A DNA stretch of 64,000 nucleotides from an uncultured bacterium. GTDB lineage: Bacteria > Arandabacterota > Arandabacteria > Arandabacterales > Arandabacteraceae. The notes below the pieces were generated by a model. That model was not told the DNA's origin. It was given only the letters and a program-made list of their open reading frames with translations, and searched no databases. Within the stretch, counting starts at the first letter, position 1; every line of letters begins with the position of its first letter. The stretch lies in NCBI GenBank assembly GCA_964356335.1, contig CAYHHI010000003.1, positions 162 to 64,161 on the forward strand. The letters are read 5' to 3'. Positions 3,841-63,599 of the stretch are shown in pieces. The translations under genes were made by a program, and so were the position numbers.

Positions 3841-3955
3841 ATTTGCCTCTCCGAAAAACCTTGAATCTCAAGGAATTTCAATCTACCCTATTCGAGACGG
3901 ATTTGCAAGAGTATTGAATCGGTCGCGTCACGTGGTTTTCCCGGTTTTCGGTGGT

Positions 3956-4801: not shown

Positions 4802-5442
4802 TGAGTCCTGCACGAGTCATAAGCTTCACAGTAAACGGAGAGAAGACCTCGCTCCATGTCGAGGATAATTGGACCCTCTTGAGACTCCTGCGCGAGGAGC
4901 TAGCCCTTACGGGAACGAAGGAGGGCTGCGGCAAGGGTGAATGTGGGGCCTGCACCGTGATCGTTGATGGGAAACCCGTCAACTCCTGCCTTGTGCTTGC
5001 CGTTGAGGTCGATGGCTCCGAGATCTTGACCATAGAGGGTGAAGGAAAAATGGTGGGCAATGTGGGGGGTAGGGGAGTGGATAAGATGAGGGGCAAGGGA
5101 GCCGATGGGGACGATTACAGGACTAGGGCCACGGGCAAGGGTACAAGCAGGGGTACAAGCAAGGGAGATGGCGGGAACGAGGGCACCGGCCTCAGCCCGT
5201 TGCAGCAAGCCTTCATAGACCACGGCGGTTTCCAGTGTGGTTTCTGCACGGCGGGAATGATAATGTCGGCGAGAGCTCTGCTTATGCAGAATCCCGACCC
5301 TACAGAAGACGAAGTCAAAGAGGCGATCTCGGGTAACCTCTGCCGGTGCACGGGGTATAAACCGATCATCGAGGCCATTCTTGACGCCGCATACCGCGAG
5401 CGTGATGAGGGAGAGCGGGTTCGAGACGTGAGCGGTGTCTAA
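4798..5442 (+). CDS. [2Fe-2S]-binding small subunit (CoxS/CutS-like) carrying a ~45-aa Gly/Lys/Arg-rich insertion
   Basis: Plant-type ferredoxin motif CGxGxCGACTV and second cluster motif CGFC...CRCTGY. A low-complexity insert (MVGNVGGRGVDKMRGKGADGDDYRTRATGKGTSRGTSKGDGGNEGTG) separates the two domains. Confidence 0.85.
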   Translation: MMSPARVISFTVNGEKTSLHVEDNWTLLRLLREELALTGTKEGCGKGECGACTVIVDGKPVNSCLVLAVEVDGSEILTIEGEGKMVGNVGGRGVDKMRGKGADGDDYRTRATGKGTSRGTSKGDGGNEGTGLSPLQQAFIDHGGFQCGFCTAGMIMSARALLMQNPDPTEDEVKEAISGNLCRCTGYKPIIEAILDAAYRERDEGERVRDVSGV

Positions 5443-5506
5443 AGAGATCGTATGAGAAATCGTATGTGCCCCTTCTTTGTGGGGAGCATGGAGAACGAGT
5501 TGAAAT

Positions 5507-10443: not shown

Positions 10444-10475
10444 GGTGAGCAGTAAGTCACGCGACGATAAGGTGT

Positions 10476-20781: not shown

Positions 20782-21025
20782 GTTAGGTTCACGCCGATGC
20801 TAGTGCCTTGCACGGCAGGTGCCGCCATATCCAGCCGCTGAGATTGCCGTGTTTGGCTTATCTTTGCTGTTCCTGCCACGGGTTACGACCCACCCATAAT
20901 GTAGGGCACGAGACCAGCCGATATTGATACGGGAAGCCGTACGCCTTTATGTCTGGTATTGCGCAGACCCACATTTGGCATGGGTCTTAAGACAGCACCG
21001 GGTTCTGATTTTGGAGGAGGGTCAA

Positions 21026-23251: not shown

Positions 23252-23289
23252 ATACTCCAACATGCCAATCGGTTCCGATGCGACAAGAA

Positions 23290-23613
23290 GCCGCAGCGGG
23301 GTCTGAGTCGGAGGCGAATGTAGTATTGAGCCGGAGATCAGCCCCGCAAGGCGGAGTCAGTGGTGCGTCGCCGCCGGATGCCCTTCGGTTAGAACCCCAA
23401 GCCCTTCGGGCCATCCGTCGGCTCGGCACGGCGATCGCAGCGTGTGTGGAACGTTCGCGAAGAGCCGTAGCGGGGTCTGGATCGGAGGCGAATGTAGTAT
23501 TGAGCCGGAGATCAGCCCCGCAAGGCGGAGTCAGTGGTGCGTCGCCGCCGGATGCCCTTCGGTTAGAACCCCATGCCCTTCGGGCTATCCGTCGGCTCGG
23601 CACGGCGATCGCA
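23290..23613. repeat. Near-identical 150-bp direct tandem repeat (two units, 24-bp spacer, about 97% identical) in the intergenic region between the two C1 peptidase genes
   Basis: Unit 1 is 23290-23439 and unit 2 is 23464-23613. They differ at about 5 positions. Each unit contains two CUUCGG tetraloop hairpins (gcccttcggg) and a ccgcaaggcgg hairpin. This repeat creates the spurious minus-strand ORF 23025..23603. Confidence 0.8.
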
Positions 23614-23703
23614 AGGGCTGCGAAATGTCTTCCCTTGCCATCATGGCTGCCGATTTGTAGAGTTACCTATGACCACGACGCGGTCTCCGGGAGGGTGCCC
23701 TTG

Positions 23704-38154: not shown

Positions 38155-38643
38155 TTGAAGAGATATGTTCCTCACGAGACTTTAAGATTAGCGGTGTGCC
38201 TGGCAATCCCCCTGCTTGCCGGTTTCATAGGCTCGCTCTTCACCCGTGAGGCGGTCACCACCTGGTACGTGACCCTGAGAAAGCCTGTCTTCACGCCACC
38301 GAGTTGGCTATTTGGCCCCGTCTGGACTGCGCTCTACGTGATGATGGGGATCGCCCTGTTCGCCATCTGGAGGAAAGGTGCGGGCATACCCGGCGTCAGA
38401 TCTGCCATCGTCCTCTTTGTGGTACAGCTTATCCTCAATACATTCTGGTCAATTGCCTTCTTCGGCTTGAGATCCCCTCTGCTGGGGGTGGTGGTGATAG
38501 CTGCCCTCTGGGTTGCACTCCTTCTTACGGTCGCAAGTTTCTTCAGAATATCATCGCTTGCCGGATGGCTGCTCGTACCCTACATGCTCTGGGTTAGCTT
38601 CGCATCCGTGCTGACCTTCTCCATATATTCTCTCAACAGGTGA
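38155..38643 (+). CDS. tspO: TspO/MBR family tryptophan-rich sensory protein
   Basis: 5-TM, Trp-rich (WYVTLRKPVFTPPSWLFGPVWTALY) protein. Confidence 0.85.
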   Translation: MKRYVPHETLRLAVCLAIPLLAGFIGSLFTREAVTTWYVTLRKPVFTPPSWLFGPVWTALYVMMGIALFAIWRKGAGIPGVRSAIVLFVVQLILNTFWSIAFFGLRSPLLGVVVIAALWVALLLTVASFFRISSLAGWLLVPYMLWVSFASVLTFSIYSLNR

Positions 38644-38723
38644 GCCTCGGGGGTCTCATATGGTTCGAGACCAACGTGAGGCAGAGAATTCGCGGGGGCG
38701 ACGAATCGGGCAGGGGGAACACG

Positions 38724-39692
38724 ATGATTGAATTTGCAAGACCCAGGATTGTGGTCAGCCGTTGCATCGAATTCGACACGTGCAGATACAATGGCGCTAT
38801 GATTCCAAGTGAGGTTGTAAGATCTCTCGGGCCTCATGTTGAGTTCCTGCCTGTCTGCCCGGAGGTAGAGATAGGGTTGGGAATACCCCGCGATCCAATA
38901 CGCATAGTCTTAGCCGACGGAGCGCGGCGACTTGTCCAGCCGGCGACGGGAAGGGATCTCACGGTTGGAATGGAGCGATTCGCGACATCGTTTCTCGGTT
39001 CCTTGCGCGACGTGGACGGTTTCATTCTTAAATTCAGATCGCCTTCATGCGGCATGAAGGATGTGAAAGTATTTTCGGGAGCGAACAGCAAGACGGCGGC
39101 GGGCAAGGGTGGAGGTTTCTTCGGCGGCGCCATACTTGCTCAATACCCCGATCCGGCTGCTGAAGACGAGGGGCGCCTCATGAGCTTTCGGATTCGTGAG
39201 CACTTCTTCATGCGCATCTTCGCGCTTGCCGCATTCCGGCAGGTCGCGGCCGCCAAATCGATGAGGGGGCTGGTTCAGTTCCAGGCCGAGAGCAAATTGC
39301 TTCTGATGGCGTACAATCAGAAGGAGATGAGAATGCTCGGCCGCGTGGTCGCAAACCCTGAGAAGAGACCGCTCGGGGAGGTTCTCAACGCCTACGGCAC
39401 GCATCTCAGGAAGGCCCTCGCGGTGGCTCCCAAGTACACTTCATGCATTAATGTGCTCATGCACGCCCTGGGCTACTTCTCAGAGGGTCTTTCCCCGAGG
39501 GAGAAGGCATTCTTTCTGGCATCACTTGAAGATTACAGGAGGGAGAAAGTCCCCCTGAGTGTCCCTGTCGGGATCATCAAGTCCTATATCGTGCGCTTCG
39601 ACGAAGCCTATTTGATGCAGCAGCGCTTTTTCGATCCCTATCCCGAAGATCTTGTGAATATCACAGACTCAGGCAAGGGCAGAGATCTGTAA
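38724..39692 (+). CDS. DUF523 + DUF1722 domain protein
   Basis: N-terminal IVVSRCIEFDTCRYNG...FLPVCPE Cys-rich DUF523 core (the TudS-like Fe-S fold), then a helical DUF1722-like C-terminal half. Confidence 0.65.
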   Translation: MIEFARPRIVVSRCIEFDTCRYNGAMIPSEVVRSLGPHVEFLPVCPEVEIGLGIPRDPIRIVLADGARRLVQPATGRDLTVGMERFATSFLGSLRDVDGFILKFRSPSCGMKDVKVFSGANSKTAAGKGGGFFGGAILAQYPDPAAEDEGRLMSFRIREHFFMRIFALAAFRQVAAAKSMRGLVQFQAESKLLLMAYNQKEMRMLGRVVANPEKRPLGEVLNAYGTHLRKALAVAPKYTSCINVLMHALGYFSEGLSPREKAFFLASLEDYRREKVPLSVPVGIIKSYIVRFDEAYLMQQRFFDPYPEDLVNITDSGKGRDL

Positions 39693-43640: not shown

Positions 43641-43845
43641 AGAAGGTATCCGTGGGCGATCGGTGGATCGATGTAATCGCGCAATCATGTCACCCTAGGC
43701 ATGGCGTTTCTCTTCGAAGAGCTAGGGATGAAGTATCAGCCCGTCGGGCAGTGATTGGTGCGCCATCTTCGGCGAAAGTCGGCTTGACCCCATGGCGTAT
43801 AGCATGTATTTTCTATGACGTCATTCCGTGAAGGGAGAGTGGTTC

Positions 43846-44163
43846 GTGCCGCAAATTGAGATGGAGGGACGGCAGTTCGAGATTGACGGAGACGGGTTCC
43901 TTCAACAACCGGAAGTATGGGACGAAAGGGTTGCCAGCCTTTTCGCCGCCGCCGACGGCACAGGTGAGCTGACCGACAAGCACTGGGCGGTCATCAGATT
44001 CATCCGCGACTACTGGCAGGAAAACAAGATGGCCCCCATGGTGCGGAAGATTTGTCAGCATACCGGCCTCCGCTTGACCGAGATCTACCAGATGTTTCCC
44101 CTGGGACCTGCCAAGGGGGCCTGCAAGATCGCTGGCCTTCCAAAACCTGACGGCTGCGTCTGA
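43846..44163 (+). CDS. dsrC: DsrC/TusE family protein of DsrC type (both conserved C-terminal cysteines present)
   Basis: Ends GPAKGACKIAGLPKPDGCV, with the penultimate Cys plus a second Cys 11 residues upstream. This is the DsrC arrangement, whereas TusE has only the last Cys. GTG start after a GGGAGAG RBS, alternatively ATG at 43861. Confidence 0.7.
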   Translation: MPQIEMEGRQFEIDGDGFLQQPEVWDERVASLFAAADGTGELTDKHWAVIRFIRDYWQENKMAPMVRKICQHTGLRLTEIYQMFPLGPAKGACKIAGLPKPDGCV

Positions 44164-44176
44164 GCGGAGAAGCCAT

Positions 44177-44812
44177 ATGTCAGCCGCTCAGTGGTTTCTC
44201 TTGACAGCCTTCGTCATATTTGTGCTGGCTTCTCTGCGTATGGTGCTCCAGGTGGTTTGGTCAGGCCGTTCCAGCTCGCTGGCAGTCCCCAAAGGCAAAC
44301 CTGTTCCTGCCGTCCTTTATTCCCTGACTGGCGCCATGCTGCCCTGGAAAAAGGAATCTGCACGCCTTCATCTGGTGATTTACGTTCTCGGGGCCGTGTA
44401 TCACATCGGCACTTTCCTGAGTTTTTTCTGGTTGATAGCCCTCTTCGTTCACGCGAGTCTGCCGCCGGTCGTGACCTCCGGCTCGGCGGCGCTACTGACA
44501 CTCACCACCCTGTGTGGGGTGGTTCTCCTCGCGAGACGTGTTGCAAGTTCGAAGTTACGTTACTTCTCGAGCCCGGATGATTACTTGAGCAACCTTCTGG
44601 TGACCGGTTTCCACGCCCTAACAGTGGCAGCCCTGTTGCATGAAGGCATCGCCAACAACCTGTTCATTTATGCGGGTATTCTCCTGCTCTATATCCCGCT
44701 GGGCAAATTGCGTCATGCTGTGTACTTCGCATTGGCCCGCTTTCATTTGGGTCTCTTCTATGGCCGGCGGGGGGTCTGGCCCGCCGAAGGCGGTAAATCA
44801 TGGCGAGCGTAA
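44177..44812 (+). CDS. Polytopic membrane protein, candidate NarI/HdrE/DsrM-like heme-b subunit
   Basis: 5-TM protein with conserved His in TM helices. Its stop overlaps the start of the HdrD-like gene, suggesting translational coupling. Confidence 0.4.
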   Translation: MSAAQWFLLTAFVIFVLASLRMVLQVVWSGRSSSLAVPKGKPVPAVLYSLTGAMLPWKKESARLHLVIYVLGAVYHIGTFLSFFWLIALFVHASLPPVVTSGSAALLTLTTLCGVVLLARRVASSKLRYFSSPDDYLSNLLVTGFHALTVAALLHEGIANNLFIYAGILLLYIPLGKLRHAVYFALARFHLGLFYGRRGVWPAEGGKSWRA

Positions 44813-46113
44813 GGACTCTGACGGCCGGGCAGAAGAGGTCGCTCAAAGCACTGGAGACAAGACTCGGCGGCAGGCTCCGCACCCATCTCAACAGCTGTGT
44901 GCACTGCGGCCTGTGTGGCGAATCTTGTCATTACTACCTGCGCTACCGCGAGGCACGCTTCATTCCAGGCAACAAAGCGGACCAGATAGCACGTCTTTAC
45001 CGCCGCTATCACACCATCCTGGGCAGGCTCGTGCCCCAATGGATTGGCGCCCGGGACCTGGATGAGAAGGCCATCGAGGAGATGGTGGACGTCATTTTCG
45101 GTGGCTGTACCATGTGTGGTCGCTGCTCCATTCATTGTTCCATCGGCGTCGACATTCCGTTTCTTGTGCGGACGGCACGGTCAATGTTGGTCGAGCTGGG
45201 CTTGGTGCCCAAGAGCCTCCAGTCCACCGTCGATGCTGCAATTGCCTCCGGGAACAACATGGCGATTCCGCGTGAGGAACTTGTCGATACCCTGCGGTGG
45301 TTGGAAGAAGACCTCAAGTTGGAAGTCGGCGACGACAGGGCAGCCATTCCACTGGATGCTTCAGGTAAGCATGTCCTCTATACCCTGAATCCCCGAGAGC
45401 CCAAGTTCTTTCCCTTGTCCATCAGTGCCATGGCCAAGATCTTCTATGCGGCGGGGGAATCCTGGACCCTCTCGACATATTGCTATGACGTGACCAATTA
45501 CGCTCTTTTCTCCGGCAATGATGAGGAAGCCAGGGAATTGGCTCAAAGGCTCTATGACGAGGTAACAAAGCTGAAGGCCGATATGCTTGTTCTGGCAGAA
45601 TGCGGACATGGTTTTCGCGCAATCCGATGGGAGGGACCTGACTGGATAAAGCGGGCCTACCCTTACCCCGTTGCCTCTGTCATTGAATTGGTAGCCTCCT
45701 ATGTCCGCACGGGACGCATCAAGTTGGACCCCTCGAAGAATCAAAAATGTGTTACCCTGCACGATCCCTGCAATCTGGTCCGGGCTGGTGGGGTGATTGA
45801 AGAGCAACGCTTCGTACTCAAGAAGGCGGTGAGCGATTTCGTCGAGATGACGCCCAACCGGGCGGACAACTACTGCTGTGGGGGTGGGGGCGGCCAGCTT
45901 TCCATGAGTGAGTATCGTGACCGCCGTGTGGAGATTGGCGAAATCAAGGCCGACCAGATCCGTCGCACGGGCGCCCGGGTCGTTGTGACACCTTGTCATA
46001 ACTGCATAGATCAGCTTATGGAGCTAAATCAGGTGTACCATCTCAATGTGGAGATCAAGACCGTGGCTGAAGTTGTAGCCCAGGCTCTGGTGGTGGAAAA
46101 GCAGGAGGCGTGA
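44800..46113 (+). CDS. HdrD/DsrK-like iron-sulfur protein (two [4Fe-4S] ferredoxin motifs + CCG domains)
   Basis: CVHCGLCGESC and CTMCGRCSIHC CxxCxxCxxxC motifs. C-terminal cysteine-rich CCG motif DNYCCGGGGG. Confidence 0.6.
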   Translation: MASVRTLTAGQKRSLKALETRLGGRLRTHLNSCVHCGLCGESCHYYLRYREARFIPGNKADQIARLYRRYHTILGRLVPQWIGARDLDEKAIEEMVDVIFGGCTMCGRCSIHCSIGVDIPFLVRTARSMLVELGLVPKSLQSTVDAAIASGNNMAIPREELVDTLRWLEEDLKLEVGDDRAAIPLDASGKHVLYTLNPREPKFFPLSISAMAKIFYAAGESWTLSTYCYDVTNYALFSGNDEEARELAQRLYDEVTKLKADMLVLAECGHGFRAIRWEGPDWIKRAYPYPVASVIELVASYVRTGRIKLDPSKNQKCVTLHDPCNLVRAGGVIEEQRFVLKKAVSDFVEMTPNRADNYCCGGGGGQLSMSEYRDRRVEIGEIKADQIRRTGARVVVTPCHNCIDQLMELNQVYHLNVEIKTVAEVVAQALVVEKQEA

Positions 46114-46170
46114 TCATCATGAGAGCTTCGGACAACAATTTCCTACCCTAAGATGCGGCAAGGATATAGT

Positions 46171-47349
46171 ATGTCAGAGATGATCTATCTGGATAATGCA
46201 GCCACCACGTTTCCGAAACCTCAGCGTGTCTATGATTACATGTACGAGTTCTATCAGAAAAAGGGCGTCAATCCGGGCCGCTCCGGATACGATGCTACCC
46301 TGGAAACCGAAGAGATGGTCCTCGGTACCCGCAAGATGCTGACCGAGTTCTTCAATGGGACCGACCCCAATTACCTGACCTTCAGTTACAATGCCAGTGA
46401 TTCTCTGAATATGCTTATTCAGGGCATGCTGGAAAAGGGCGATCACGTGATCACCACCAACCTCGAACATAACTCCGTGCTGCGGCCGCTGTACCACCTG
46501 AAACACGACGGGGTCATTGAAGTGACCTATATACCCTTCGGTCCCGAAGGCTACGTTGACCCGGACGACGTCAGAAAAGCAATCAAGACAAACACCAAGA
46601 TGGTCATCGTGAACCATGGCTCCAATGTCATCGGCACAGTGCAGCCGATCGGAGAGATTGGGAAAATCTGCCGCGCGGCCGGCGTCTATTTCGCTGTCGA
46701 TGTCAGCCAGACCGCAGGCGTAGAGAGAATCGACGTCACGGCAATGAGCATAGATCTGTTGGCCTTTACCGGGCATAAGTGTCTCATGGGCCCAACCGGC
46801 ATTGGCGGTTCCTATATCGGCCCAAAGGTACCCATTCGCGGCACCCGTTTCGGCGGTACGGGGGTCCGCTCGGCTTATCCGTTTCATCTGGAGGAATTCC
46901 CCTATCGAATGGAGTGCGGCACGCTCAATATCGTCGGGGTAGCCGGCTTGCGCGCTGGGCTCGAGTGGATTCTTGAAGAAGGCATCGACAATATTCACCG
47001 GCGGGAGATGGGGCTCTTTAAGAGACTGTGCGATGGCCTTGGCCGGATTGATAAGGTGACCCTCTATGGCGCCGATGGCGCGGACAACCATATTGCTGTC
47101 TTGAGCTTCAACATCGAGGGCTGGGAAGCGGCTGATGTGGGGACGATGCTGGACGTCGATTACGACATCGCCAGCCGTACCGGACTGCAGTGCGCTCCAC
47201 TGGTGCACGTCCAGCTCGGCACCGACAAGATTCACGGCACAGTCCGGATCAGTATCGGCCCGTTCAACACCGAAGATCACATCGACACGGCCATCGAGGC
47301 GGTCAGAGATATTGCTGCATTGATCAGAAAGTGTGACGTCAACGCCTGA
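46171..47349 (+). CDS. Cysteine desulfurase (SufS/CsdA-like class V aminotransferase fold)
   Basis: PLP lysine in TGHKCLMGPTGIGG. Active-site loop RTGLQCAPL is of the group II type. Its stop overlaps the MFS gene start (TGATG). Confidence 0.8.
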   Translation: MSEMIYLDNAATTFPKPQRVYDYMYEFYQKKGVNPGRSGYDATLETEEMVLGTRKMLTEFFNGTDPNYLTFSYNASDSLNMLIQGMLEKGDHVITTNLEHNSVLRPLYHLKHDGVIEVTYIPFGPEGYVDPDDVRKAIKTNTKMVIVNHGSNVIGTVQPIGEIGKICRAAGVYFAVDVSQTAGVERIDVTAMSIDLLAFTGHKCLMGPTGIGGSYIGPKVPIRGTRFGGTGVRSAYPFHLEEFPYRMECGTLNIVGVAGLRAGLEWILEEGIDNIHRREMGLFKRLCDGLGRIDKVTLYGADGADNHIAVLSFNIEGWEAADVGTMLDVDYDIASRTGLQCAPLVHVQLGTDKIHGTVRISIGPFNTEDHIDTAIEAVRDIAALIRKCDVNA

Positions 47350-48620
47350 TGCATCGGGCACACCCAATGGCGCGTTTAAGGTCTGACATCGTCCTTCTCT
47401 TTACTACCCGCATCGCGCGGATGTTTGCTTACGGCTTCCTGTCCGTGGCGCTGGCACTTTATCTTGCCGAGATCGGCTTCAAAGACGCCCAGATAGGACT
47501 GCTGTTTACACTTACCCTGGTGGGTGATGCGGTAGTCTCGCTCGGCCTCACCACGTCCGCAGACAGAGTCGGCAGAAGACGAATGCTGGTTATCGGTGCG
47601 GCCTTGATGGTGCTGGGAGGGGTGGTATTCGTTCTAACGAAGAATCCCGCCCTGCTGATGGCTGCCGCCATCGTCGGTGTCATCAGCCCAAGCGGCTATG
47701 AAATCGGCCCGTTTCTTTCGATTGAACAGGCTGCCCTGTCGCATCTCATTCCAGGCGAGCGTCGCACGCGCGTCTTTGCGTGGTACAACCTTGTCGGCTC
47801 CTTCGCCACGGCGCTTGGTTCGTTGAGTGGTGGGGCGCTTGCCAGCACTCTGCATAAATCCGGATTCACTGCCCTTGAGTCCTACCGCGCCTTGCTGATC
47901 GGCTATGCCTTGGTAGGTGTGGCACTCGCGGTGATTTTCACGAGCCTCTCGGCGGCCGTTGAAATCACGAAGATATCAAGTGCCTCGAAGCCACAGAATG
48001 CACCGGGTGCACTGCGCTCTCATTCCTTCGGGTTACACCGCTCGCGAGGCATAGTGCTCAGACTGAGCGGCCTCTTTGCCTTGGACGCTTTCGGTGGTGG
48101 ATTCGTTGTTCAGAGCATCATGGCCTACTGGTTCCATGTCAAGTTCGGTGTGGATATCGGTGTACTAGGCCGAATATTCTTCGGCGCAAACGTTCTGGCG
48201 GGCATCTCAGGCCTGCTTGCCGCCAGGATCGCGTCCCGGATAGGCTTAGTGAGGACCATGGTCTTTACCCACCTTCCTTCCAATGTCTTACTGATGCTCG
48301 TGCCGTTCATGCCGAGTTTGCATCTGGCGATCGCCGTGCTGCTCTTGCGTTTCAGCATCTCCCAGATGGATGTGCCCACGCGCCAGTCCTACACGATGGC
48401 GGTGGTCGCGCCTGATGAACGCTCCGCAGCATCAGGCGTAACAACAATCGCGAGGTCGGCTGGTGCCTCCATATCGCCCTCGTTGACCGGCATCCTCCTT
48501 TCCCACCCAGCGCTTATCGGCGTGCCATTTGTCCTATCCGGCGGCCTGAAGATCGTGTACGATCTGCTTCTGTATCGAAGCTTCAGGCGCCTGAGACCAC
48601 CCGAAGAGACACGTGCCTGA
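47349..48620 (+). CDS. MFS transporter
   Basis: 12-TM protein with the MFS motif GDAVVSLGLTTSADRVGRRR. Confidence 0.8.
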   Translation: MHRAHPMARLRSDIVLLFTTRIARMFAYGFLSVALALYLAEIGFKDAQIGLLFTLTLVGDAVVSLGLTTSADRVGRRRMLVIGAALMVLGGVVFVLTKNPALLMAAAIVGVISPSGYEIGPFLSIEQAALSHLIPGERRTRVFAWYNLVGSFATALGSLSGGALASTLHKSGFTALESYRALLIGYALVGVALAVIFTSLSAAVEITKISSASKPQNAPGALRSHSFGLHRSRGIVLRLSGLFALDAFGGGFVVQSIMAYWFHVKFGVDIGVLGRIFFGANVLAGISGLLAARIASRIGLVRTMVFTHLPSNVLLMLVPFMPSLHLAIAVLLLRFSISQMDVPTRQSYTMAVVAPDERSAASGVTTIARSAGASISPSLTGILLSHPALIGVPFVLSGGLKIVYDLLLYRSFRRLRPPEETRA

Positions 48621-56379: not shown

Positions 56380-56849
56380 GATGTTGTCCTTCGCGTAAGC
56401 CCCTTGGGTGCTTACGCCGCGCTTCAGCGGACCGGCTACTTTTGTGGCACGTCATACGCACAGCCTACCCACACCCCACACCGCCGCCAAGCCAAGCGGG
56501 CGCATGGCCGGCTCCGCTGCAAGCGATGGTTAGCCGTCGCGCTCCTATTGCTGGTGAGCAATGGTCCTCCGTTGCTCTTGCATCTTCCTCTTCCTGCTAC
56601 GGAAAAGCACCACCAAGCTGATAATCGGAGTGAACACCATCAACAGTCCGAAGGGAATCACGCCGTTTCCCTCGGGATAAGGGTACTGGGCGACGGCAGC
56701 CCAGCATGAGAACCCTACCAAGACGAGGTTGCAGACCACTGCCACGATTCTCATAATGATCCTCCTAGGGTCGCTCGTTGCACTACGCGACGTCTCGTAT
56801 AAGAGATCAGAGAGATAATTGAGATCTCAGGGGCACACCTCTAAGATAT

Positions 56850-57423
56850 TGGTTGTGTCAGCCCCAAAGGAGGTGTGCCCTATGAGACTTAAAGAGTATG
56901 GCCGAAGTCCAGAGAAACGTAAAGAGTTTCTTCAGCACCCCGGGTTACTTATAGTGGGAATAGACGTGAGCAAAGCGAGGCACACTGCCCTTATTGGCAC
57001 CCAGCCCGCCGTGCTGTGCCAAGATGCTTGTGGCCCAGATCACGCCTGCGCTACTCGGCTCGCCTCAGGCATCCTCTCGCACCGGATTGGATGATCGCTC
57101 CGCTCCACCACCATATGATCAAGACTCATCTGTCCTGCCCCTCACGCGAGCCTGACACTAACTGGCGCATGCTCCGGCATACAGCCCGTCGTTTGAATGG
57201 GACGCTACGAGGGATCCGATGTGTCTCTAGGGCACGAAGAGTTATTCCCTTCGCAGGCTCCCTCACAGGAGCCCTGAACCTTGTATAGGGGTTTGTGTGG
57301 GACAGCTTGTTCCCACACCATAAGATAAGAAACTAAGTCAGGCAGTAAGGTCTTGAGAAACAAAGAAACCGGCGGCCCCGCCCCGGCTTCATGGAGAATT
57401 ACTCCCCTTGACCTGGGGAGGCC
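56850..57423 (+). mobile_element. IS110-family insertion sequence remnant (internally deleted, left end missing)
   Basis: Short ORF MRLKEYGRSPEKRKEFLQHPGLLIVGIDVSKARH (DEDD N-terminal motif) is joined directly to frameshifted C-terminal Transposase_20-like remnants (CGPDHACATRLASG and SARLRHPLAP resemble IPGIGPxTAxTLLAE and SARQLAAYxGLAP). The right end ...GGGGAGGCC matches the copy at 58213..59168. About 85% nucleotide identity to that copy over ~420 bp. Confidence 0.5.
57350..57386 (-). terminator. Possible minus-strand terminator inside the IS remnant right end, downstream of vapC
   Basis: On the minus strand: hairpin CCGGGGCGGGGCCGCCGG followed by a TTTCTTTGTTTCTC T-rich tract. Confidence 0.35.
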
Positions 57424-57444
57424 TCATAGGTGTTCGACACAGCA

Positions 57445-57843
57445 TCACCTATGCAACACTATCGGTAGATGCTTCGCATATAGCACAAAGTCATTGTCAG
57501 TCGTGAAGACGGCCAGCCGGTGATGCACAGCCACGGCGCAGATCAGGAAGTCCGTGTTTGATCCTTGGACTCCCTTACTCCGGCACTCATTGTAGAACCG
57601 AGCTGCCATGACGTAGTCCTCGCTGGTGACGGGAAGGTCGGGAAACGCACTGAGATGTGCCTCGAGCTCCTTGAACTGCGCTTTGTCACGGATCCCTGAG
57701 AGCAGCTCTTGGCGAATCGCACCAATCATCTGCACCCGATTGTCAGCAATCAAACCCCGGAGTTCACGGACCGGCCCAAGGGTGCTATCGCTGCCACGGC
57801 GAAGCGCCAACGACCAGACGCTTGTGTCGACCAGCACCCTCAT
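57445..57843 (-). CDS. vapC: PIN-domain toxin VapC
   Basis: MRVLVDTSVW N-terminal Asp and the C-terminal TTDNDF acidic motif. Confidence 0.8.
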   Translation of the reverse strand: MRVLVDTSVWSLALRRGSDSTLGPVRELRGLIADNRVQMIGAIRQELLSGIRDKAQFKELEAHLSAFPDLPVTSEDYVMAARFYNECRSKGVQGSNTDFLICAVAVHHRLAVFTTDNDFVLYAKHLPIVLHR

Positions 57844-58055
57844 CGCCGCGCTCGCTGCTTCTTGTAGTCATAGCTTGCATCGTACTCAATGGCACCGAAA
57901 AGAGATCCGATCTTCTCCTGTTCCAAATGCTGCACATAGGTCACCAGCGCCTGAGTCACCGCTGCCTTCTTGGTCCGGTGCCTGCCGAGCCTGACGGCCT
58001 TGCGGATAAGTCTGTCATCAATCTGAAGATTGGTAGCCATCGTCATCGCCTCCAC
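57840..58055 (-). CDS. vapB: VapB-family antitoxin
   Basis: 71-aa protein whose gene overlaps vapC by 4 bp. Basic helical N-terminus. Confidence 0.6.
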   Translation of the reverse strand: MEAMTMATNLQIDDRLIRKAVRLGRHRTKKAAVTQALVTYVQHLEQEKIGSLFGAIEYDASYDYKKQRARR

Positions 58056-58110
58056 ACATATTCTGACACAACACTATGTGTAATGTCAAGAGGTATTTCC
58101 CAGGGCGTCC

Positions 58111-58203
58111 AACGGTGTGGCTGAGCGGTGGGGCAAGGTGGCGCGGCTGTTGCCACTGCAACAGACGTGACACCGTAGCAGCCGTCCGCTCGAGCCACTG
58201 GAT
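58111..58203. repeat. R-element copy 4
   Basis: AACGGTGTGGCTGAGCGGTGGGG... with hairpin GTTGC-CACT-GCAAC. The closing pair is changed in a compensatory way relative to copy 1. Lies 56 nt upstream of the vapB start, immediately outside the IS110 left end. Confidence 0.7.
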
Positions 58204-58282
58204 ACTCATTGAGGCCTCCCCTTAGGGAGCCTCCCGAGCGTATGCTCGGGGGTAGACATCTGGCTGAAAGGAGGAGACCTCA

Positions 58283-58693
58283 ATGAGATTCTATACCAAA
58301 CAGCGCGTCTTCTACTGCGGTGTTGATCTCCACGTCAAGTCCATGTACGTCTGCATCCTGGACCAGCATGGCGAGATCACCCTACACCGCAACCTGCCCG
58401 CAGAGCCAGAAGCCTTTCTCTCGGCCATCCAGCCTTACCGCCAAGACATCGTCGTCTGTGCTGAGTGTATGTTCAGTTGGTACTGGCTCGCAGACCTCTG
58501 TGGAAGGGAGAACATCCCCTTCGTCCTCGGTCACGCATTATACATGAAGGCCATACATGGGGGAAAGGCCAAAAACGACAGGATAGATTCCCACAAGATC
58601 GCGGCACTCCTTGCCCATAGGCTCGGCAGAGCTGTCTACTTCATGCTCCTGCGAGAGAAGGCATTTGATATGAAACGATTCCTTACTAACTGA
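58283..58693 (+). pseudogene. IS110-family transposase, N-terminal 136 aa only (truncated)
   Basis: The DEDD RuvC-like N-terminal domain is present. The Tnp_20 C-terminal domain and its catalytic Ser are absent from this frame. Confidence 0.7.
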
Positions 58694-59104
58694 TCCGGAG
58701 GGAGCGGCCAAGCCAGACGCCTAACTGGAGCCATCTATGAGAAGCCACTCAGGTACCAGCAATGTGCCAAAATGCTTGTGGCTCGGACTACACCTGCGGT
58801 ACTCGGCATCTCTCAGGCAGCCTCTCGCACTTGATTGGATGGCCGCTCCGCTCCATCATCATATAGTCAAGACTTGCCTGTCCTGCCCCTCACCCGAGCC
58901 CGACACTAACTGGCGCATGCTCACGTGTGCAGCCCACCACTTGACTGGGACGGTACGAGGGAGCCGATGCGTTTCTAGGTCGCGAAGTGACTTGCCCTTC
59001 GCAGGTTCCTCTCGAGGAACCCTGAACCTCGATAGGTGTTTGTGTAGGACAGCTTTTCCCCACACCAAATGATGAGAAACTAAGTCAGGCAGTGAAGTCT
59101 TGAT

Positions 59105-59134
59105 GAAAAAAACGAAGCCGCCCCCCGTCGGCTT
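59105..59134 (-). terminator. Minus-strand rho-independent terminator inside the IS right end
   Basis: Minus strand reads AAGCCGACGGGGGGCGGCTT hairpin followed by CGTTTTTTT. It would terminate the methyltransferase/lipoprotein transcript. Confidence 0.5.
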
Positions 59135-59227
59135 GATGGAGAATTATTTCCCTTGACTCGGGGAGGCCTTATAGGGGTTACGCCTGCTGTGGTGCTGCTG
59201 CCAGCATCGACTGGCGCGCACCACCGT

Positions 59228-59638
59228 TTATGGTCGCACGTAACAAGAGTCGAGCAAGATGGGACCGCTCGACTGCACCTCCACGTAGGCCCAGCCACTG
59301 CCGGCAGGCTCCAGTGCGATAGTGGTCTCGAAGTACTTGAGCTCGCGGGTGCAGTGAGTCCCCTTGGGTGGTGTCCCAGATAGACCTATAGGGCGTAGGA
59401 TCCATCTCGACCCCACCATCTCCGACTCGATTCGCGCGAAGCGATCACAGCAGCATCCCGCGATACCAGAGACAAAAGCATCAATCGCGTGCTCGGCATC
59501 GACTGAATCTGGAACCTGTAGGGTTAACGCGTAGGCCAGAAACTCCTCGGGCTCAGGCTCCGGCTCACTCGTCCCACAACCTGACGATATCACCAGCCAC
59601 ACAAGCGGGATGATCGCCATGCACCGTCTATGGCACAT
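59228..59638 (-). CDS. Hypothetical lipoprotein
   Basis: Lipobox VISSGC after a signal peptide. Confidence 0.4.
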   Translation of the reverse strand: MCHRRCMAIIPLVWLVISSGCGTSEPEPEPEEFLAYALTLQVPDSVDAEHAIDAFVSGIAGCCCDRFARIESEMVGSRWILRPIGLSGTPPKGTHCTRELKYFETTIALEPAGSGWAYVEVQSSGPILLDSCYVRP

Positions 59639-59682
59639 TCCTCAGATGTCTCCTCCGTTCAACCTTCGCCCACCCTCCCGGC

Positions 59683-60402
59683 TCACACCGCCGTGCCAAA
59701 TTGCAGCCGTTGGTTCGCAGCCTCTGGTTGCCTACTACAAACCATGGCGTAAACGTCGCGATCACGGATGATCTTCTGACAAACCCATCCTGTCTTCCTG
59801 ATCATGTCCTCCGCGACGTTGCTCGTGAAGTAAATTCGATCAAACGGCTCACCGGCTTGACCGGCGTATTTGAACCGCAGCGCGTTTCGCATCACTCCGG
59901 GTTGCACATTGCACATCTCCGGTCTGACCTCAACAGAATCGAAGATCAGGACGCCGTTGCACGAGCAACACTGATGGCATTGGCTCAGCAGCGACTCGAC
60001 TCGTGATAGGCTACCCGCAGTGCAGATCGTCCGGTTGAGGAACAGAATCGTGTCCATGGGGGCAAACCTGCTGAGGTTGTCGTACGACTCGACAGAGACC
60101 TTGCTGATTCCCCGCCGCTTGCACAGGGCGATAAGCATGGGATCAATATCAAATCCCGACGCATCTGCGCCTTGGTCTTGCAGATGCTTCAGGATGCGTC
60201 CGGCTCCGCACCCAACGTCGAGAATCCTTCCTCTCGCGTGCTGCAATGCCTCCCGTTCATGCGTGTCTGGCGTCGCTGTAAGATAGAACGCCAGTCCCAA
60301 GGGATGATCTCCCGTCTCGTCCGACACGACGAAACAGCCTTTGGGTTGACCGTCATAGAGATCGGTCAACGCCTCACCGAACAATATCCGTTTACCCGTC
60401 AT
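59683..60402 (-). CDS. Class I SAM-dependent methyltransferase
   Basis: ILDVGCGAGRIL motif I and DIDPMLI motif II. Confidence 0.75.
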   Translation of the reverse strand: MTGKRILFGEALTDLYDGQPKGCFVVSDETGDHPLGLAFYLTATPDTHEREALQHARGRILDVGCGAGRILKHLQDQGADASGFDIDPMLIALCKRRGISKVSVESYDNLSRFAPMDTILFLNRTICTAGSLSRVESLLSQCHQCCSCNGVLIFDSVEVRPEMCNVQPGVMRNALRFKYAGQAGEPFDRIYFTSNVAEDMIRKTGWVCQKIIRDRDVYAMVCSRQPEAANQRLQFGTAV

Positions 60403-60559: not shown

Positions 60560-62248
60560 CTAAGCATTCCCTTCGGCCTTCCTCTCGTCGGCTAGAACTT
60601 GCTTGGCAGCCCTGAGATCGATTATGGCCTTGTGACCATGTTTTTCCAAGAGGTGGAGTAGGTTTGATCCACTGAGAAGGGTGAGCGGTTTCCCCTTCGC
60701 AAAGGCGTATGCGTCTGGGCCATAGTCTGCGGTGGTGACCAAGATTCCCTTGGTCGCACCTTCGTTGACCACGGTGCCGTAGAGGTCTCGCACTGCCGAG
60801 ACACCAACGGTATTTGTATATCGCTTGGCCTGGATCACGATCTTTCCTCCTCGTATCGGGTCGGGATCGAAGGCAATGGCATCAACCCCGCCGTCTCGGC
60901 TGGCTTGTGTGATCTTGACCTCCCCGCCGCCTTGCGAGAACTCTTTCTCGAAGATCTCACGAATGAGATGCTCAAAATCCTCCCAATCCATCGCGGCAAG
61001 ATTAGTAGACTGGTCGACTTCTCCGACCACTGAGTACGATGACACGAATCGCTTGTCCTCTCTGTTCAGCTGCAATATCGGAGCAATGGGAGACAGGCCG
61101 TGCAACTTGCTGCTTCCAACACCCTTGAGGGTCTTGAAGCAGATTTTCGGTTCAACATGCCTGAGGTCGACCCCTTGGAACTCGCTACGCGGGGCTTGAA
61201 CGGACAAGACACAGACCGTTATGGGCTTGCCGGTTCCCTTGTCGATCGAGCGAACCCAGCCGTTGAAAACCACTCCGGCAATGGCCTCGGTCTGGTCGGA
61301 CTCATATACCTCATGCACTGTTCTGAGAGCAATCTGATACAGAAGACTATCATATAGCTTGTTGAACGCGGCCTCCTGGATATGGACTTCAGCGAATTCA
61401 TCTTTTGACGCTACGTACTTGACCTCTCTCAGGGTCGGGATATCCTCGGGAGCGGGCAAGAAGTAATCGATGACAAGGGTCTTTGTCTCTGCCTGATAAT
61501 CTAGATTCCACTCCTGCGGGAACGTATCGGGATACTGAGAATTGGAGAGCACCATTTCGCAGTATTCAGCTATGGCTTGTGGCTCCAGCGCGAAATAGGC
61601 CTTCTTCCTCTCCAGAATGGCCTCGTTCTTCTCAGCTTGCGCGAGCTGGTATTGGCGCTGTTCTTCCTCCCACCGCTTCAGGTTCGACGCGTAGTCCTCT
61701 TCAATCTTCTTGTTCTTCGTCTGCACTTCAGAGACTTCCTTGTTCCAGCCTTGGTGTGCGACAGTGAGCCTCTCATGGGCTTGCTGTTCAGCCTTTTGCC
61801 GGAGCCCGCCGAAAAGAGCGTAGTACCACTTGCGGGCCGGTCGGAACTGGTGATCAGACTCCTTGGGCTCCGTCGGGAGGGGATGTGGTTCGGGCTTCTT
61901 GGGGCGAGGGGTAGGGAAGGCTGTATTGTCGAGTAGCGACTCCCACGCAATGCGATCGTCCACCTGTAGCGTGTGGAGCAGTGTTTGCTCGATTCTCGCA
62001 ATGGCCTCTTGGGCCTCCGCTGTGCGTTGGGCAGCCAGATTCTTCTTTGCTTCCTTCTCACGGGCTGACGCCTCTTTGGCCGATCGTGCCTGCTCGACTG
62101 CTTGCTTCTTCTCCCACATCTCGTCCCACACCCGCCGCTGAGCTTGTGCCTGCTGCTCTACCACGTTTCGATCCGTGCCTCTGATGAGTCGATACTTGTG
62201 AAGGCCGTCATGACTGACCTCAATTCGATAAGGTGCATACCCGGGCAT
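60560..62248 (-). CDS. Mrr-cat (restriction endonuclease-like PD-(D/E)xK) domain protein with long coiled-coil N-terminal region
   Basis: C-terminal WEDFEHLIREIFEK...GGVDAIAF...IVIQAKRY matches the Mrr catalytic domain D...(E/Q)xK pattern. The N-terminal ~350 aa are K/E/Q-rich coiled-coil. Confidence 0.7.
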   Translation of the reverse strand: MPGYAPYRIEVSHDGLHKYRLIRGTDRNVVEQQAQAQRRVWDEMWEKKQAVEQARSAKEASAREKEAKKNLAAQRTAEAQEAIARIEQTLLHTLQVDDRIAWESLLDNTAFPTPRPKKPEPHPLPTEPKESDHQFRPARKWYYALFGGLRQKAEQQAHERLTVAHQGWNKEVSEVQTKNKKIEEDYASNLKRWEEEQRQYQLAQAEKNEAILERKKAYFALEPQAIAEYCEMVLSNSQYPDTFPQEWNLDYQAETKTLVIDYFLPAPEDIPTLREVKYVASKDEFAEVHIQEAAFNKLYDSLLYQIALRTVHEVYESDQTEAIAGVVFNGWVRSIDKGTGKPITVCVLSVQAPRSEFQGVDLRHVEPKICFKTLKGVGSSKLHGLSPIAPILQLNREDKRFVSSYSVVGEVDQSTNLAAMDWEDFEHLIREIFEKEFSQGGGEVKITQASRDGGVDAIAFDPDPIRGGKIVIQAKRYTNTVGVSAVRDLYGTVVNEGATKGILVTTADYGPDAYAFAKGKPLTLLSGSNLLHLLEKHGHKAIIDLRAAKQVLADERKAEGNA

Positions 62249-62351
62249 ACTTACTCCTCTCGCTCATGCTTCAATCTTCATAGTTCTCCATGTATCGCCA
62301 ACTACTGCGCTCAGCGGCAGGCGCCTTGCGCCTGCCCGCTGGATCGTGTCG

Positions 62352-63599
62352 CTATGTCAATGAACTCGACTGCCAATCGGTCCACTTGGTAGGCCAGGAT
62401 GCATGTAGGTATGGACGTATTATCCCCTCCTGTTCCACGTGGGTCCCTCCCTGTGTCACCTCATCATGGGACACGATAGGGGTTAGCCGCCCAGGTTTGT
62501 CCGCGTTGGACGAGCCGCCTAAGTAAGTGATAAACCGTTTGACCGGTCTGCCTTCGCCAGCGGCCAGTAAGCGTCGCGTGATGACATCGGTAATGTTATC
62601 TCGTAATAGCGGACTCAGCACATTCAGCATTGCCTCACCGGCGACGTTGTCGACAACGGAATGAATCATCATGTCACACGTGGGCTCCTTCACGCTATAT
62701 GTGGCGTAGGACACTAGGGCCGAATCCCCAAGGTGCCAGGTGCGAGTCTCCAGCGTGAGCCCCAGGTTGAAAGACTCCGGGCCGCTCAAGATTGCTGACT
62801 TTCGCGCTCTGTCCAATTCGGCGAATTGTGATTCCACCTCCTCGTACGAGCGCCCTGTGGCCTCGCCAGCATGCGCGAGTAGCCGTAGCAATGCCGCCGC
62901 TGGTTGATATTCGTGCGGTAGTGATTCCCATCGCGAGGGGACCATGATAGAGGAAGGCGCAGCTAGATCCTTCAGAGCTGAGTAATGCTCCTGCCGGAGA
63001 GCATAGGAGAGTTTCACACGAATAGGGGCGAGCGTTCCTCCATCATAGGTGACCAATGCTCGTTTCTTGAAAGTGAGGTAAAGGAGGTCGCGAAGTATGG
63101 GCTGTAGCTTCTCAGCAAGTATCGCCGCATCAATGTCTGCAATTGGTCTCCCGAGAGCACACAATATCCCTCTCAGAACGACCCTTAGGCCGTCGCCAGT
63201 GGAGACGGCAAGACGATCGGCTAGAGGAGGGGAGAAACGTCGAACGCCCTCAGCGTCCACCTCATGCCAAACGGGCAGAATCAGATGGGTGCCCTCGGCC
63301 GTCTCACGTGCCACTATTCCGTCCAACTCGCGCTGGGGCCATTGCTTGGCAAAGAAATGAGGGCTAAGAACGACGATGGCACGGTCGCATGTTGCGAGCC
63401 CCTCGTCTATTCGCCTTCGAATGCTGTCGCCGACCGAGAGGGTGAATTCATCATACCAGACCGGTACGCCACGCTCCCGCAATGCACGTGCCAACGGGCC
63501 GACAATCGCAGTCTTGTCCTCAGAGGCGTGAATAACAAAAACCCCGGACCGGGGCGCTTGGCTCGAACTGTGTTCCGCTGATCTTGCTGCGTCGTTCAT
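62352..63599 (-). CDS. TIR-domain protein with an uncharacterised ~260-aa C-terminal domain
   Basis: N-terminal VFVIHASEDK...VPVWYDEFTLSVGDSI...AIVVLSPHFFAKQWPQRELDGI is a TIR fold with the conserved Glu of NADase-type TIRs (W..REL). The C-terminal domain was not recognised. Confidence 0.7.
   Translation of the reverse strand: MNDAARSAEHSSSQAPRSGVFVIHASEDKTAIVGPLARALRERGVPVWYDEFTLSVGDSIRRRIDEGLATCDRAIVVLSPHFFAKQWPQRELDGIVARETAEGTHLILPVWHEVDAEGVRRFSPPLADRLAVSTGDGLRVVLRGILCALGRPIADIDAAILAEKLQPILRDLLYLTFKKRALVTYDGGTLAPIRVKLSYALRQEHYSALKDLAAPSSIMVPSRWESLPHEYQPAAALLRLLAHAGEATGRSYEEVESQFAELDRARKSAILSGPESFNLGLTLETRTWHLGDSALVSYATYSVKEPTCDMMIHSVVDNVAGEAMLNVLSPLLRDNITDVITRRLLAAGEGRPVKRFITYLGGSSNADKPGRLTPIVSHDEVTQGGTHVEQEGIIRPYLHASWPTKWTDWQSSSLT

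Follow-up and report, generated by a model that had tools for sequence, protein, structure and literature searches.

Within a 64,000-nucleotide stretch of DNA from an uncultured bacterium of the family Arandabacteraceae (contig CAYHHI010000003.1 of assembly GCA_964356335.1, positions 162 to 64,161; hereafter, the window), four neighbouring genes, which encode a DsrC-type sulfur carrier, a small membrane protein, an iron–sulfur protein with a CCG motif and a cysteine desulfurase (43846–47349), constitute a conserved functional module. Their adjacency is not coincidental, given that the gene order recurs in 81 loci of several phyla, that two of the subunits also occur as a natural fusion protein and that start and stop codons overlap. 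By analogy with the DsrC/DsrMK system of sulfate reducers, we propose, with about even confidence, that the module reduces DsrC-bound sulfane sulfur with electrons from quinol, independently of DsrAB, and that a dedicated cysteine desulfurase supplies this sulfur.

Conservation and layout of the gene cluster

Relatives of the CCG protein are numerous: a protein search returned more than 4,000, the best 120 of which share 66–99% identity with the window protein, and the 99% relative (P0001) led to a near-identical JGI contig (L001); an exact look-up of the window protein itself gave no match. In a species scan based on one genome per GTDB species, such relatives were found in at least 575 genomes, and the carriers mostly belong to the Fibrobacteres–Chlorobi–Bacteroidetes (FCB) group. 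Among the best 80 of these genomes, the closest is from Candidatus Eisenbacteria (83% identity in the CCG protein), the most likely lineage of the window, and the others include Phycisphaerae, Latescibacteria, Zixibacteria, Melioribacteraceae, Ignavibacteria, Lentimicrobiaceae, Rikenellaceae, Prolixibacteraceae, Marinilabiliales and many other Bacteroidales metagenome-assembled genomes (MAGs). Judging from record titles, the MAGs originate from groundwater, sediments, digesters, sulfidic springs, lakes and rumen. An earlier note on this DNA, made from the letters alone, had held the route suggested by the arrangement to be uncommon outside dissimilatory sulfur metabolisers, a view that this range of carriers contradicts.

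We compared the five window proteins (that is, those of the module and a downstream transporter) by tblastn with 81 non-redundant loci, each taken with at most 8 kb of flanking DNA on either side. The membrane protein gene is present in 80 of these loci and dsrC in 76, invariably in the order dsrC–membrane–CCG, and three of the five loci that have no dsrC end at contig edges. An orthologue of the desulfurase (63–86% identity) lies within the fetched DNA in 72 of the 81 loci, and no more than 400 bp from the CCG or dsrC gene in 63; the 72 copies lie downstream, either on the same strand (49 loci) or on the opposite one (19), or else upstream (4). When neighbouring open reading frames (ORFs) were clustered all against all, no other gene family occurred in more than 19 loci. 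DsrAB is not conserved within approximately 7 kb of the cluster in the 81 loci; SufE, SufU, CsdE, NifU, IscU and SufBCD are likewise not conserved among its neighbours, and neither tusBCD, mnmA or another thiolation enzyme nor selD, yqeB or yqeC is conserved beside it.

Linkage extends to the proteins themselves. One sequence from the search of representatives (P0386, 670 amino acids) is a natural fusion of the membrane part (residues 7–208) and the CCG protein, and in this resembles EtfD. The pairwise-distance matrices of the four proteins correlate with one another (r = 0.68–0.79, a level that a common species history would also give; none of 999 permutations reached the observed values), with r = 0.79 for the desulfurase and CCG matrices, and the mean p-distance of the desulfurase (0.31) is close to that of DsrC (0.32). 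The functional unit suspected in the earlier note is thus borne out by synteny across phyla and by the membrane/CCG fusion. A chance meeting of four unrelated genes, for which nothing speaks except that each of the families is also found on its own elsewhere, deserves virtually no credence, as it is already refuted by the order kept in 81 loci, the fusion protein and the overlapping codons.

In the window, the dsrC-like gene (43846–44163; 105 amino acids; Pfam DsrC, 3.8e-35), the membrane protein gene (44177–44812; 211 amino acids with 7 His; no Pfam match), the CCG iron–sulfur protein gene (44800–46113; 437 amino acids; Pfam CCG and Fer4_8) and the cysteine desulfurase gene (46153–47349; 398 amino acids; Aminotran_5, 1e-84, of class-V aminotransferase fold) are followed by the gene of a major facilitator superfamily (MFS) transporter (47349–48620; 423 amino acids; MFS_1, 1.2e-30). 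All five are co-directional on the + strand, as the ORF listing for 38–54 kb and inspection of the DNA confirm for the earlier reading, together with the overlapping ends of the membrane/CCG and desulfurase/MFS pairs: the ATG of the CCG gene (44800) sits 13 nt inside the membrane protein gene, and the TGA stop of the desulfurase gene shares 1 nt with the ATG of the MFS gene (TGATG), which is translationally coupled to it. The dsrC gene starts with a GTG seven bases past the ribosome-binding site GGGAGAG; an alternative GTG at 43828 would give six extra residues that are missing in orthologues, all of which have the DsrC length of 105 amino acids. The 205-bp gap 5′ of dsrC holds a candidate sigma-70-like promoter (TTGACC-17-TATTTT, 43784..43812, + strand; a weak pattern match, 9 of 12 positions), and the next promoter-like site comes only after the MFS gene; such sites are no more numerous in the region than in shuffled sequence. 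Given that stop and start codons overlap and that promoter-like sites flank the set, the five genes look like one operon. The MFS gene is nevertheless a lineage-specific add-on outside the core module: of the 81 loci, only the near-identical contig L001 and an Eisenbacteria MAG (L006) have it beside the module, and we rejected it as a core component as the other loci lack it. Pfam scans of approximately 46 of the longer ORFs of the window detected no sulfite reductase (NIR_SIR-type/DsrAB), TusBCD/DsrEFH or MnmA family, in line with the earlier statement that the window is devoid of DsrAB, and an Rfam search of the window gave no match.

The surroundings of the module vary among lineages. Two Bacteroidales loci (L018 and L082) have kept the CCG and desulfurase genes with no detectable dsrC, L082 also having no membrane protein gene and L018 only a fragment of one, and possibly represent decaying or rearranged copies. 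A CysK/CysM-like gene stands between the CCG and desulfurase genes in five loci (L025 9297–10409, − strand, and four others), a further tie to cysteine metabolism. Directly 5′ of dsrC, approximately 20 Bacteroidales loci encode a Cys-rich ORF of approximately 85 amino acids (for example, L031 4481–4738, L049 6758–7003 and L046 6801–7019; including ...CPNYNEC...YCCCD...C...C...) that has no Pfam or NCBIfam match and that does not occur in the window. In three Bacteroidales loci (L053 1251–11688, and also L068 and L085), the core module is embedded in a more extensive set of sulfur genes, in which a type III sulfide:quinone reductase, a DUF1641 protein, a DsrE2-like carrier and a second DsrC/TusE-like protein (33% identical) are encoded a few kilobases upstream, accompanied by a Crp/FNR regulator, a second class-V aminotransferase of 496 amino acids and a downstream CysK-like enzyme. 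The sulfide:quinone reductase of L053 matches the selenoprotein-subtype model (628 bits versus a cutoff of 525).

Components of the module

The small protein ends in GAC(93)KIAGLPKPDGC(104)V, that is, in the CysB-x10-CysA-Val arrangement already recognized in the earlier note; CysB (C93) and the penultimate CysA (C104) are located in GACKIAGLPKPDGCV. Both are invariant in 75 orthologues, as are the entire tail AGLPKPDGCV and a third cysteine, Cys70. The protein passes the broad DsrC/TusE/DsvC family model TIGR03342 (106.8 bits versus a cutoff of 53.5) and fails the TusE equivalog NF008562 (73.1 bits versus 191). A phmmer search of the PDB placed it with the DsrC chains 2xsj_C, 1ji8_A, 2v4j_C, 1sau_A, 3or1_C, 3or2_C and 1yx3_A (1.5e-31 to 1.9e-24), with the matched structures from Desulfomicrobium, Pyrobaculum, Desulfovibrio and Archaeoglobus at 1.5e-31 to 1.7e-27; true DsrC reached 112 bits, whereas the TusE-type chain 7syb_A scored only 32 bits (1.4e-6). 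By its sequence, the small protein thus resembles genuine DsrC rather than TusE, as the earlier note had supposed; we rejected identity with TusE on account of the failed NF008562 model and the gap between the PDB scores. The DsrC tail motif used by DiSCo is AGLPKPTG(not N)CA, with one mismatch tolerated (PMC8477390), and the tail of the window protein differs from it at two positions (T to D and A to V). A Gly rather than an Asn precedes CysA, as in DsrC, and solved DsrC chains also end in GCV. Asp102 stands where classical DsrC has Thr, and Cys70 has no counterpart in classical DsrC.

The CCG protein combines two cubane [4Fe-4S] motifs of the form CX2CX2CX3C (C33/36/39/43 and C103/106/109/113) with an AEC268GH motif and a single CCG motif (C324..C359-C360-G..C399xxC402) that is predicted to hold a noncubane [4Fe-4S] cluster, and every motif cysteine is invariant in 24 sequences of 66–83% identity. 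The signature of DsrK, HmcF and TmcB consists of two ferredoxin motifs, one complete CCG motif and the Cys in T/GECGH, in contrast to HdrD and HdrB, which have two CCG motifs (PMC10861901, Barbosa et al.); the CCG protein shows this signature in full. Its best NCBIfam matches are HmcF (NF045711, 313.2 bits, 3e-93) and TmcB (NF045724, 311.6 bits, 7e-93), at less than half of either cutoff (750 and 735 bits), followed by DsrK (NF045796, 248.1 bits, 1.3e-73, residues 25–435; below the cutoff of 400). GlpC (44.6 bits, 9e-12), GlcF (21.7 bits) and LutB (15.6 bits) lie far behind, and we discarded GlpC/LutA as the identity of the protein given that none of these three exceeds 45 bits as against 313 for HmcF; the grouping with DsrK rather than with GlpC/LutA that the earlier note had put forward is upheld. 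An AlphaFold2 model (predicted local distance difference test (pLDDT), 81) has Mycobacterium smegmatis EtfD (9ojn) as its best fold match in the PDB (E 1e-13, TMq 0.70), with LutA (TMq 0.41) and then HdrB next. We predict that the CCG protein is a cytoplasmic catalytic subunit of the DsrK/HmcF/TmcB type.

Sequence comparison is less informative for the membrane protein. NCBIfam gave weak matches to TmcC (4e-10, nearly full length), HmcE (3e-9) and DsrM (2e-3), all of which failed the equivalog cutoffs (TmcC NF045723, 39.5/240 bits; HmcE NF045716, 37.1/275; DsrM NF038037, 17.6/300). A search of the PDB with the sequence returned a chance match only, and the best 150 matches of its profile among representatives all belonged to its own family, with no genuine TmcC, HmcE or DsrM among them. 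By structure modelling, the protein has five transmembrane helices and a NarI-like fold: an AlphaFold2 model from 36 sequences (pLDDT 87.7) found NarI as each of its eight best Foldseek matches in the PDB (full length, probability 1.0, TM ~0.5, E 0.04–0.1). Because Lys/Arg-rich segments occur at residues 30–65, at 120–128 and at the C terminus, the sequence would indicate an N-out, C-in topology. Some relatives carry the JGI label 'nitrate reductase gamma subunit'.

With respect to heme, we compared the His residues of 123 representatives of the family, no two of which are more than 50% identical. H76 is present in 100% of them, H180 in 98% and H65, at the cytoplasmic end of helix 2, in 90% (range 90–97%); H190 is not conserved. 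K59, R121, D135 and K177 are nearly invariant, and R128 is near-invariant. An hhalign comparison with Escherichia coli NarI is weak (probability 1.9%) and serves only to place H76 at NarI H56, and H180 is placed at NarI H205 by the motif P-x-G-K-L-R-H (P-F-S-R-L-I-H in NarI). We take NarI H56/H205 to be the ligands of the cytoplasm-proximal heme and H66/H187 those of the distal heme; the family has no His equivalent to H66 or H187. The four-His dihaem pattern of NarI, HdrE and DsrM (two each in helices 2 and 5) is therefore absent, and, because only the single pair H76/H180 (plus H65) is conserved, the protein probably has a single heme b, located close to the cytoplasmic face, rather than two, and is probably the quinone-interacting subunit. 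EtfD offers a precedent, with five transmembrane helices, a single heme b (His78/His241), Arg residues at the heme propionates, menaquinone 4–5 Å from the heme and a cubane cluster 7 Å away, followed by the CCG clusters (PMC13083937). By analogy, K59, R121, K177 and R128 could be counterparts of the propionate arginines of EtfD. Of the HdrE/DsrM-like subunit in the earlier note, the NarI fold and one heme His pair stand (that is, conserved heme histidines, the absence of which it had named as refuting, do exist), whereas the dihaem ligand set does not and the size is that of TmcC/HmcE.

The desulfurase passes the model TIGR01977 (am_tr_V_EF2568) over its full length (426.6 bits versus a cutoff of 377) and fails those of SufS (TIGR01979, 249.5/475.1 bits) and SclA (NF040779, 308/525 bits). 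The PLP-binding lysine (FTGHK(209)) and the loop of the persulfide-forming cysteine (RTGL[QH]C(347)AP) are kept in 67 of 68 aligned orthologues; the loop of the window enzyme, RTGLQC(347)AP, is of the group-II type. The nearest solved structures are the cysteine desulfurases 5b7s and Bacillus subtilis SufS. From these sequence features, the enzyme is assigned as a group-II-like PLP cysteine desulfurase of the TIGR01977 family, and identity with SufS proper or SclA was rejected, both scores being under the curated cutoffs. The SufS-type group II enzyme of the earlier note accordingly keeps its group-II-type loop and PLP lysine but changes family.

Proposed mechanism

To our knowledge, DsrMK(JOP) is the only biochemically characterized relative of the reductase pair. 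In Archaeoglobus fulgidus, DsrMKJOP has menadiol:DsrC-trisulfide oxidoreductase activity and releases sulfide, with reduction of heme b and of the DsrK noncubane cluster (PMC10861901). We suggest the same mechanism for the module because it has the catalytic residues, its own DsrC, a quinone-type anchor and no other subunit for electron input, and because a cysteine desulfurase stands in the place of sulfite reductase. The analysis shows which domains and motifs the proteins contain, how they are predicted to fold and that their genes are linked; from this we infer all chemical steps and the direction of electron flow, including the DsrC persulfide or trisulfide chemistry that the earlier note had suggested.

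The TIGR01977 desulfurase would convert L-cysteine into L-alanine and form a persulfide on Cys347, as the chemistry of the family and the conserved K209 and C347 suggest. This persulfide may then be handed to CysA104 on the flexible C-terminal arm of DsrC, which we consider to be the acceptor because it is the sole candidate in the cluster and no SufE, SufU or CsdE is conserved beside it. By comparison with sulfate-reducer DsrC, CysB93 would resolve the persulfide to give either a CysA–S–CysB trisulfide or an intramolecular disulfide plus sulfide, and the DsrK-like subunit would reduce the oxidized DsrC at its noncubane cluster and the ECGH cysteine, releasing H2S and restoring the dithiol. 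Electrons from menaquinol may pass through the single heme b (H76/H180) to the two cubane clusters, as fold, conservation and the likeness to EtfD would allow. Overall, this would amount to cysteine + menaquinol → alanine + H2S + menaquinone, by which fermentative or proteolytic anaerobes may dispose of electrons and direct cysteine sulfur along a controlled path. Because heme and presumed quinone site face the cytoplasm, the reduction step is probably electroneutral, and energy would be gained from quinone-reducing dehydrogenases. The cysK-like genes in or beside the cluster in several loci provide supporting context, and we speculate that in the window lineage the MFS transporter may carry substrate or product. 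A further and more tentative possibility is a cysteine-sulfur respiration, in which a large number of FCB-group anaerobes (Bacteroidales, Ignavibacteria, Eisenbacteria, Latescibacteria and Zixibacteria) and some Planctomycetota would use cysteine sulfur as a terminal electron acceptor by way of a private DsrC and a minimal, single-heme DsrMK-like complex, with alanine and H2S as the products.

Several points weigh against the proposed reductase. We know of no precedent for direct transfer from a cysteine desulfurase to DsrC, the known donors being DsrEFH and TusBCD. Nine of the 81 loci have no desulfurase in the fetched DNA, and at least five of these (L028, L047, L057, L059 and L074) do not have one despite 8 kb of downstream sequence (three of them despite 8 kb on both sides). 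The architecture leaves the direction of electron flow unfixed, given that the analogous EtfD runs towards the quinone, and the three Bacteroidales loci with a sulfide:quinone reductase, a DsrE2-like carrier and a second DsrC-like protein would fit sulfide oxidation or trafficking equally well. The driving force would also be small: for cysteine + H2 → alanine + H2S, a rough estimate from formation energies gives about −60 kJ/mol and puts the couple at about −0.1 V, close to menaquinone, so that the reaction would be feasible but not strongly driven. Finally, the invariant Cys70 and Asp102, which are family-specific residues of this DsrC, and His65 of the membrane protein have roles that the proposal leaves unexplained.

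Alternative explanations

Two alternatives place the desulfurase or the carrier in biosynthesis. In one, which we regard as unlikely, the desulfurase merely matures the Fe–S clusters of the CCG protein in the manner of NifS, and DsrC is loaded from another source, such as polysulfide, thiosulfate, a rhodanese/TusA/DsrE relay or a sulfite reductase whose genes lie elsewhere. The CCG subunit does need three clusters, the nine loci that have no adjacent desulfurase and its variable orientation (same strand, opposite strand or upstream) would suit an accessory factor, and some loci contain DsrE2-like and second DsrC-like genes; however, no scaffold gene (NifU, IscU, SufU or SufBCD) is conserved beside the cluster, enzymes of this kind are normally served by the housekeeping Fe–S systems, and the desulfurase is as conserved as DsrC itself and its distances track those of the CCG protein. 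In the other, a quite unlikely one, the desulfurase feeds a TusE-like carrier through which tRNA or a cofactor is thiolated, and the part of the DsrK-like/cytochrome b pair is limited to keeping this carrier reduced or rescuing its dead-end disulfides. The IscS–TusA–TusBCD–TusE relay is the textbook use of the DsrC/TusE fold outside sulfur dissimilation, and public pipelines name the small protein 'tRNA 2-thiouridine synthesizing protein E'. TusE, however, requires CysA alone, whereas CysB is invariant in the window family, both the TusE model (73 versus 191 bits) and the TusE-type chain (32 bits versus 112 for DsrC) score poorly, no tusBCD, mnmA or thiolation enzyme appears in the window scans or is conserved beside the cluster, and a membrane-bound reductase of respiratory type would be an odd partner.

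The module might also run in the opposite direction, with the DsrK-like enzyme oxidizing DsrC dithiol plus sulfide (or a persulfide), passing the electrons to menaquinone and yielding sulfane sulfur for detoxification or assimilation. EtfD, the closest solved architecture, does reduce menaquinone, many carriers come from sulfidic or anoxic sites by their record titles, and a type III sulfide:quinone reductase and a DsrE2-like carrier adjoin the module in loci of the L053 type. Nevertheless, this association concerns only about 3 of the 81 loci, the oxidation would be redundant as the desulfurase already gives sulfane sulfur without an oxidant, and no sink is known that could take up a DsrC trisulfide without DsrAB; we consider this direction decidedly unlikely. 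Very improbable, finally, is selenium trafficking, in which the TIGR01977 enzyme would act as a selenocysteine lyase and DsrC and the reductase would handle perselenide or selenide. Members of TIGR01977 are linked to selenium-dependent molybdenum hydroxylases, SclA is the second-best NCBIfam match of the desulfurase (308 bits), and the sulfide:quinone reductase of L053 matches a selenoprotein subtype, yet the SclA score is far under its cutoff of 525 bits whereas the general TIGR01977 model is passed, selD, yqeB and yqeC are not conserved beside the cluster, and the chemistry of DsrC and DsrK is established for sulfur alone.

Relationship to known systems

Viewed as a quinol-linked reductase of DsrC-bound sulfur, the module would work like DsrC/DsrMK, is closest in sequence to TmcBC/HmcEF and resembles HdrDE/EtfD in architecture. 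It shares with DsrC/DsrMK(JOP) the two-cysteine DsrC with an AGLPKPxGCV arm, the combination of two cubane motifs, ECGH and one CCG, the partner of NarI fold and, in predicted logic, the path from quinol through heme b and Fe–S clusters to DsrC-bound sulfur. It differs from DsrMKJOP in that DsrJOP is missing and DsrAB is found neither in the window scans nor conserved beside the cluster; from DsrK in the score of the CCG protein (248 bits, with a cutoff of 400); from DsrM in that the subunit is shorter (211 amino acids, compared with 320 positions in the DsrM model), reaches 17.6 of 300 bits and has one His pair instead of two; from classical DsrC in the Asp that replaces Thr in the tail and the extra invariant Cys70; and from sulfate reducers in that the cysteine desulfurase occupies the genomic place of sulfite reductase as the presumed sulfur source. 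TmcBC and HmcEF of Desulfovibrio are the best-scoring curated families for both subunits, share ECGH and a single CCG and, in the case of TmcC/HmcE, are of similar subunit size (models of 218–226 positions), yet all scores are far under the cutoffs (750, 735, 240 and 275), the TmcA/HmcA cytochrome c and the other subunits are absent, the module hosts belong to the FCB group and are not known sulfate reducers, and a dedicated DsrC and desulfurase are part of the cluster.

With EtfD (9ojn) and Methanosarcina HdrDE, the module has in common a five-helix membrane part, two cubane clusters and CCG domain(s); EtfD indicates that one heme b and a nearby quinone site suffice, and P0386 is fused as EtfD is. 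However, the two CCG domains of EtfD contain a linear [3Fe-4S] cluster and a noncubane cluster that is shielded and non-catalytic, and EtfD uses electrons from electron-transfer flavoprotein to reduce menaquinone; the two CCG motifs of HdrD are catalytic, and its substrate is CoM-S-S-CoB. The CCG protein of the module, by contrast, combines a single CCG motif with the DsrK-type cysteine, and its predicted protein substrate is encoded next to it. The pairing of a PLP desulfurase that has an RxGxxCA-type loop with a small cysteine carrier recalls SufS–SufE, SufS–SufU, CsdA–CsdE and the Tus relay, the TusE of which is of the same fold family as DsrC. Here, in contrast to the SufS/CsdA pairs, the putative acceptor is a two-cysteine DsrC and not SufE, SufU or CsdE, the enzyme is of TIGR01977, and the module is coupled to a membrane reductase rather than to an Fe–S scaffold or, as in the Tus relay, a tRNA thiolase. 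The components should not be filed as DsrK, HmcF, TmcB, DsrM, TmcC, HmcE, TusE or SufS because the curated equivalog cutoffs of all of these were failed and only the DsrC/TusE/DsvC and TIGR01977 families were passed. In public databases, the proteins carry generic or misleading names, such as 'Fe-S oxidoreductase', 'nitrate reductase gamma subunit' or 'tRNA 2-thiouridine synthesizing protein E', and cluster look-ups of the module proteins gave generic names only and no cultured organism. We found no description of a cluster of DsrC, a DsrMK-like pair and a cysteine desulfurase in the searchable full-text literature, which does not cover most subscription journals.

Other features of the window

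Elsewhere in the window, two large tandem proteins of the papain family (Peptidase_C1; 20924–25968) with lectin-like domains and one FlgD-Ig-like C-terminal domain are probably secreted proteases. At 3914–11975, a xanthine-dehydrogenase-type molybdoenzyme (with FAD, 2Fe-2S and molybdenum cofactor subunits) is encoded beside AllH, FdrA-like (CoA-ligase domain) and AllG genes, in what looks like a purine/oxamate catabolic cluster. An aromatic amino-acid lyase and a di-heme cytochrome c peroxidase are also encoded. As the window contains genes for secreted papain-type proteases and for the catabolism of amino acids and purines, its content suggests that the host is a proteolytic anaerobe or heterotroph. 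A sulfur-handling protein with a 2-thiouracil desulfurase domain and DUF1722 (38640–39692) is found 4 kb upstream of the module and also in the near-identical contig L001. Near the end of the window, adjacent genes on the − strand (60560–63599) encode a 562-amino-acid protein with an Mrr_cat restriction-endonuclease domain and a 415-amino-acid TIR-domain protein, a pair that looks like a defence system. An interval of approximately 3 kb (56709–59683) contains just short, overlapping ORFs, none of which reaches 150 amino acids, and gave no match in Rfam.

Implications

DsrC and DsrK-type reductases are commonly treated as parts and markers of the DsrAB pathway, yet a conserved and widespread version exists with no sulfite reductase nearby and a cysteine desulfurase in its place, and the generic labels under which its proteins are deposited hide the module and can mislead metabolic reconstructions. 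As a minimal four-protein system, it lends itself to studies of DsrC/DsrK catalysis. If the proposed function is correct, the trisulfide chemistry of DsrC and DsrK would be separated from DsrAB, the known substrates and donors of DsrC would be extended, and metagenomic matches to dsrC and dsrK-like genes would be unreliable as markers of dissimilatory sulfite or sulfate metabolism. For the organisms themselves, abundant fermentative and proteolytic anaerobes, it would mean that organic sulfur can be turned into sulfide by a new route, one linked to their quinone pool, and, with this, a previously unrecognized enzymatic source of sulfide in sediments, digesters and guts.

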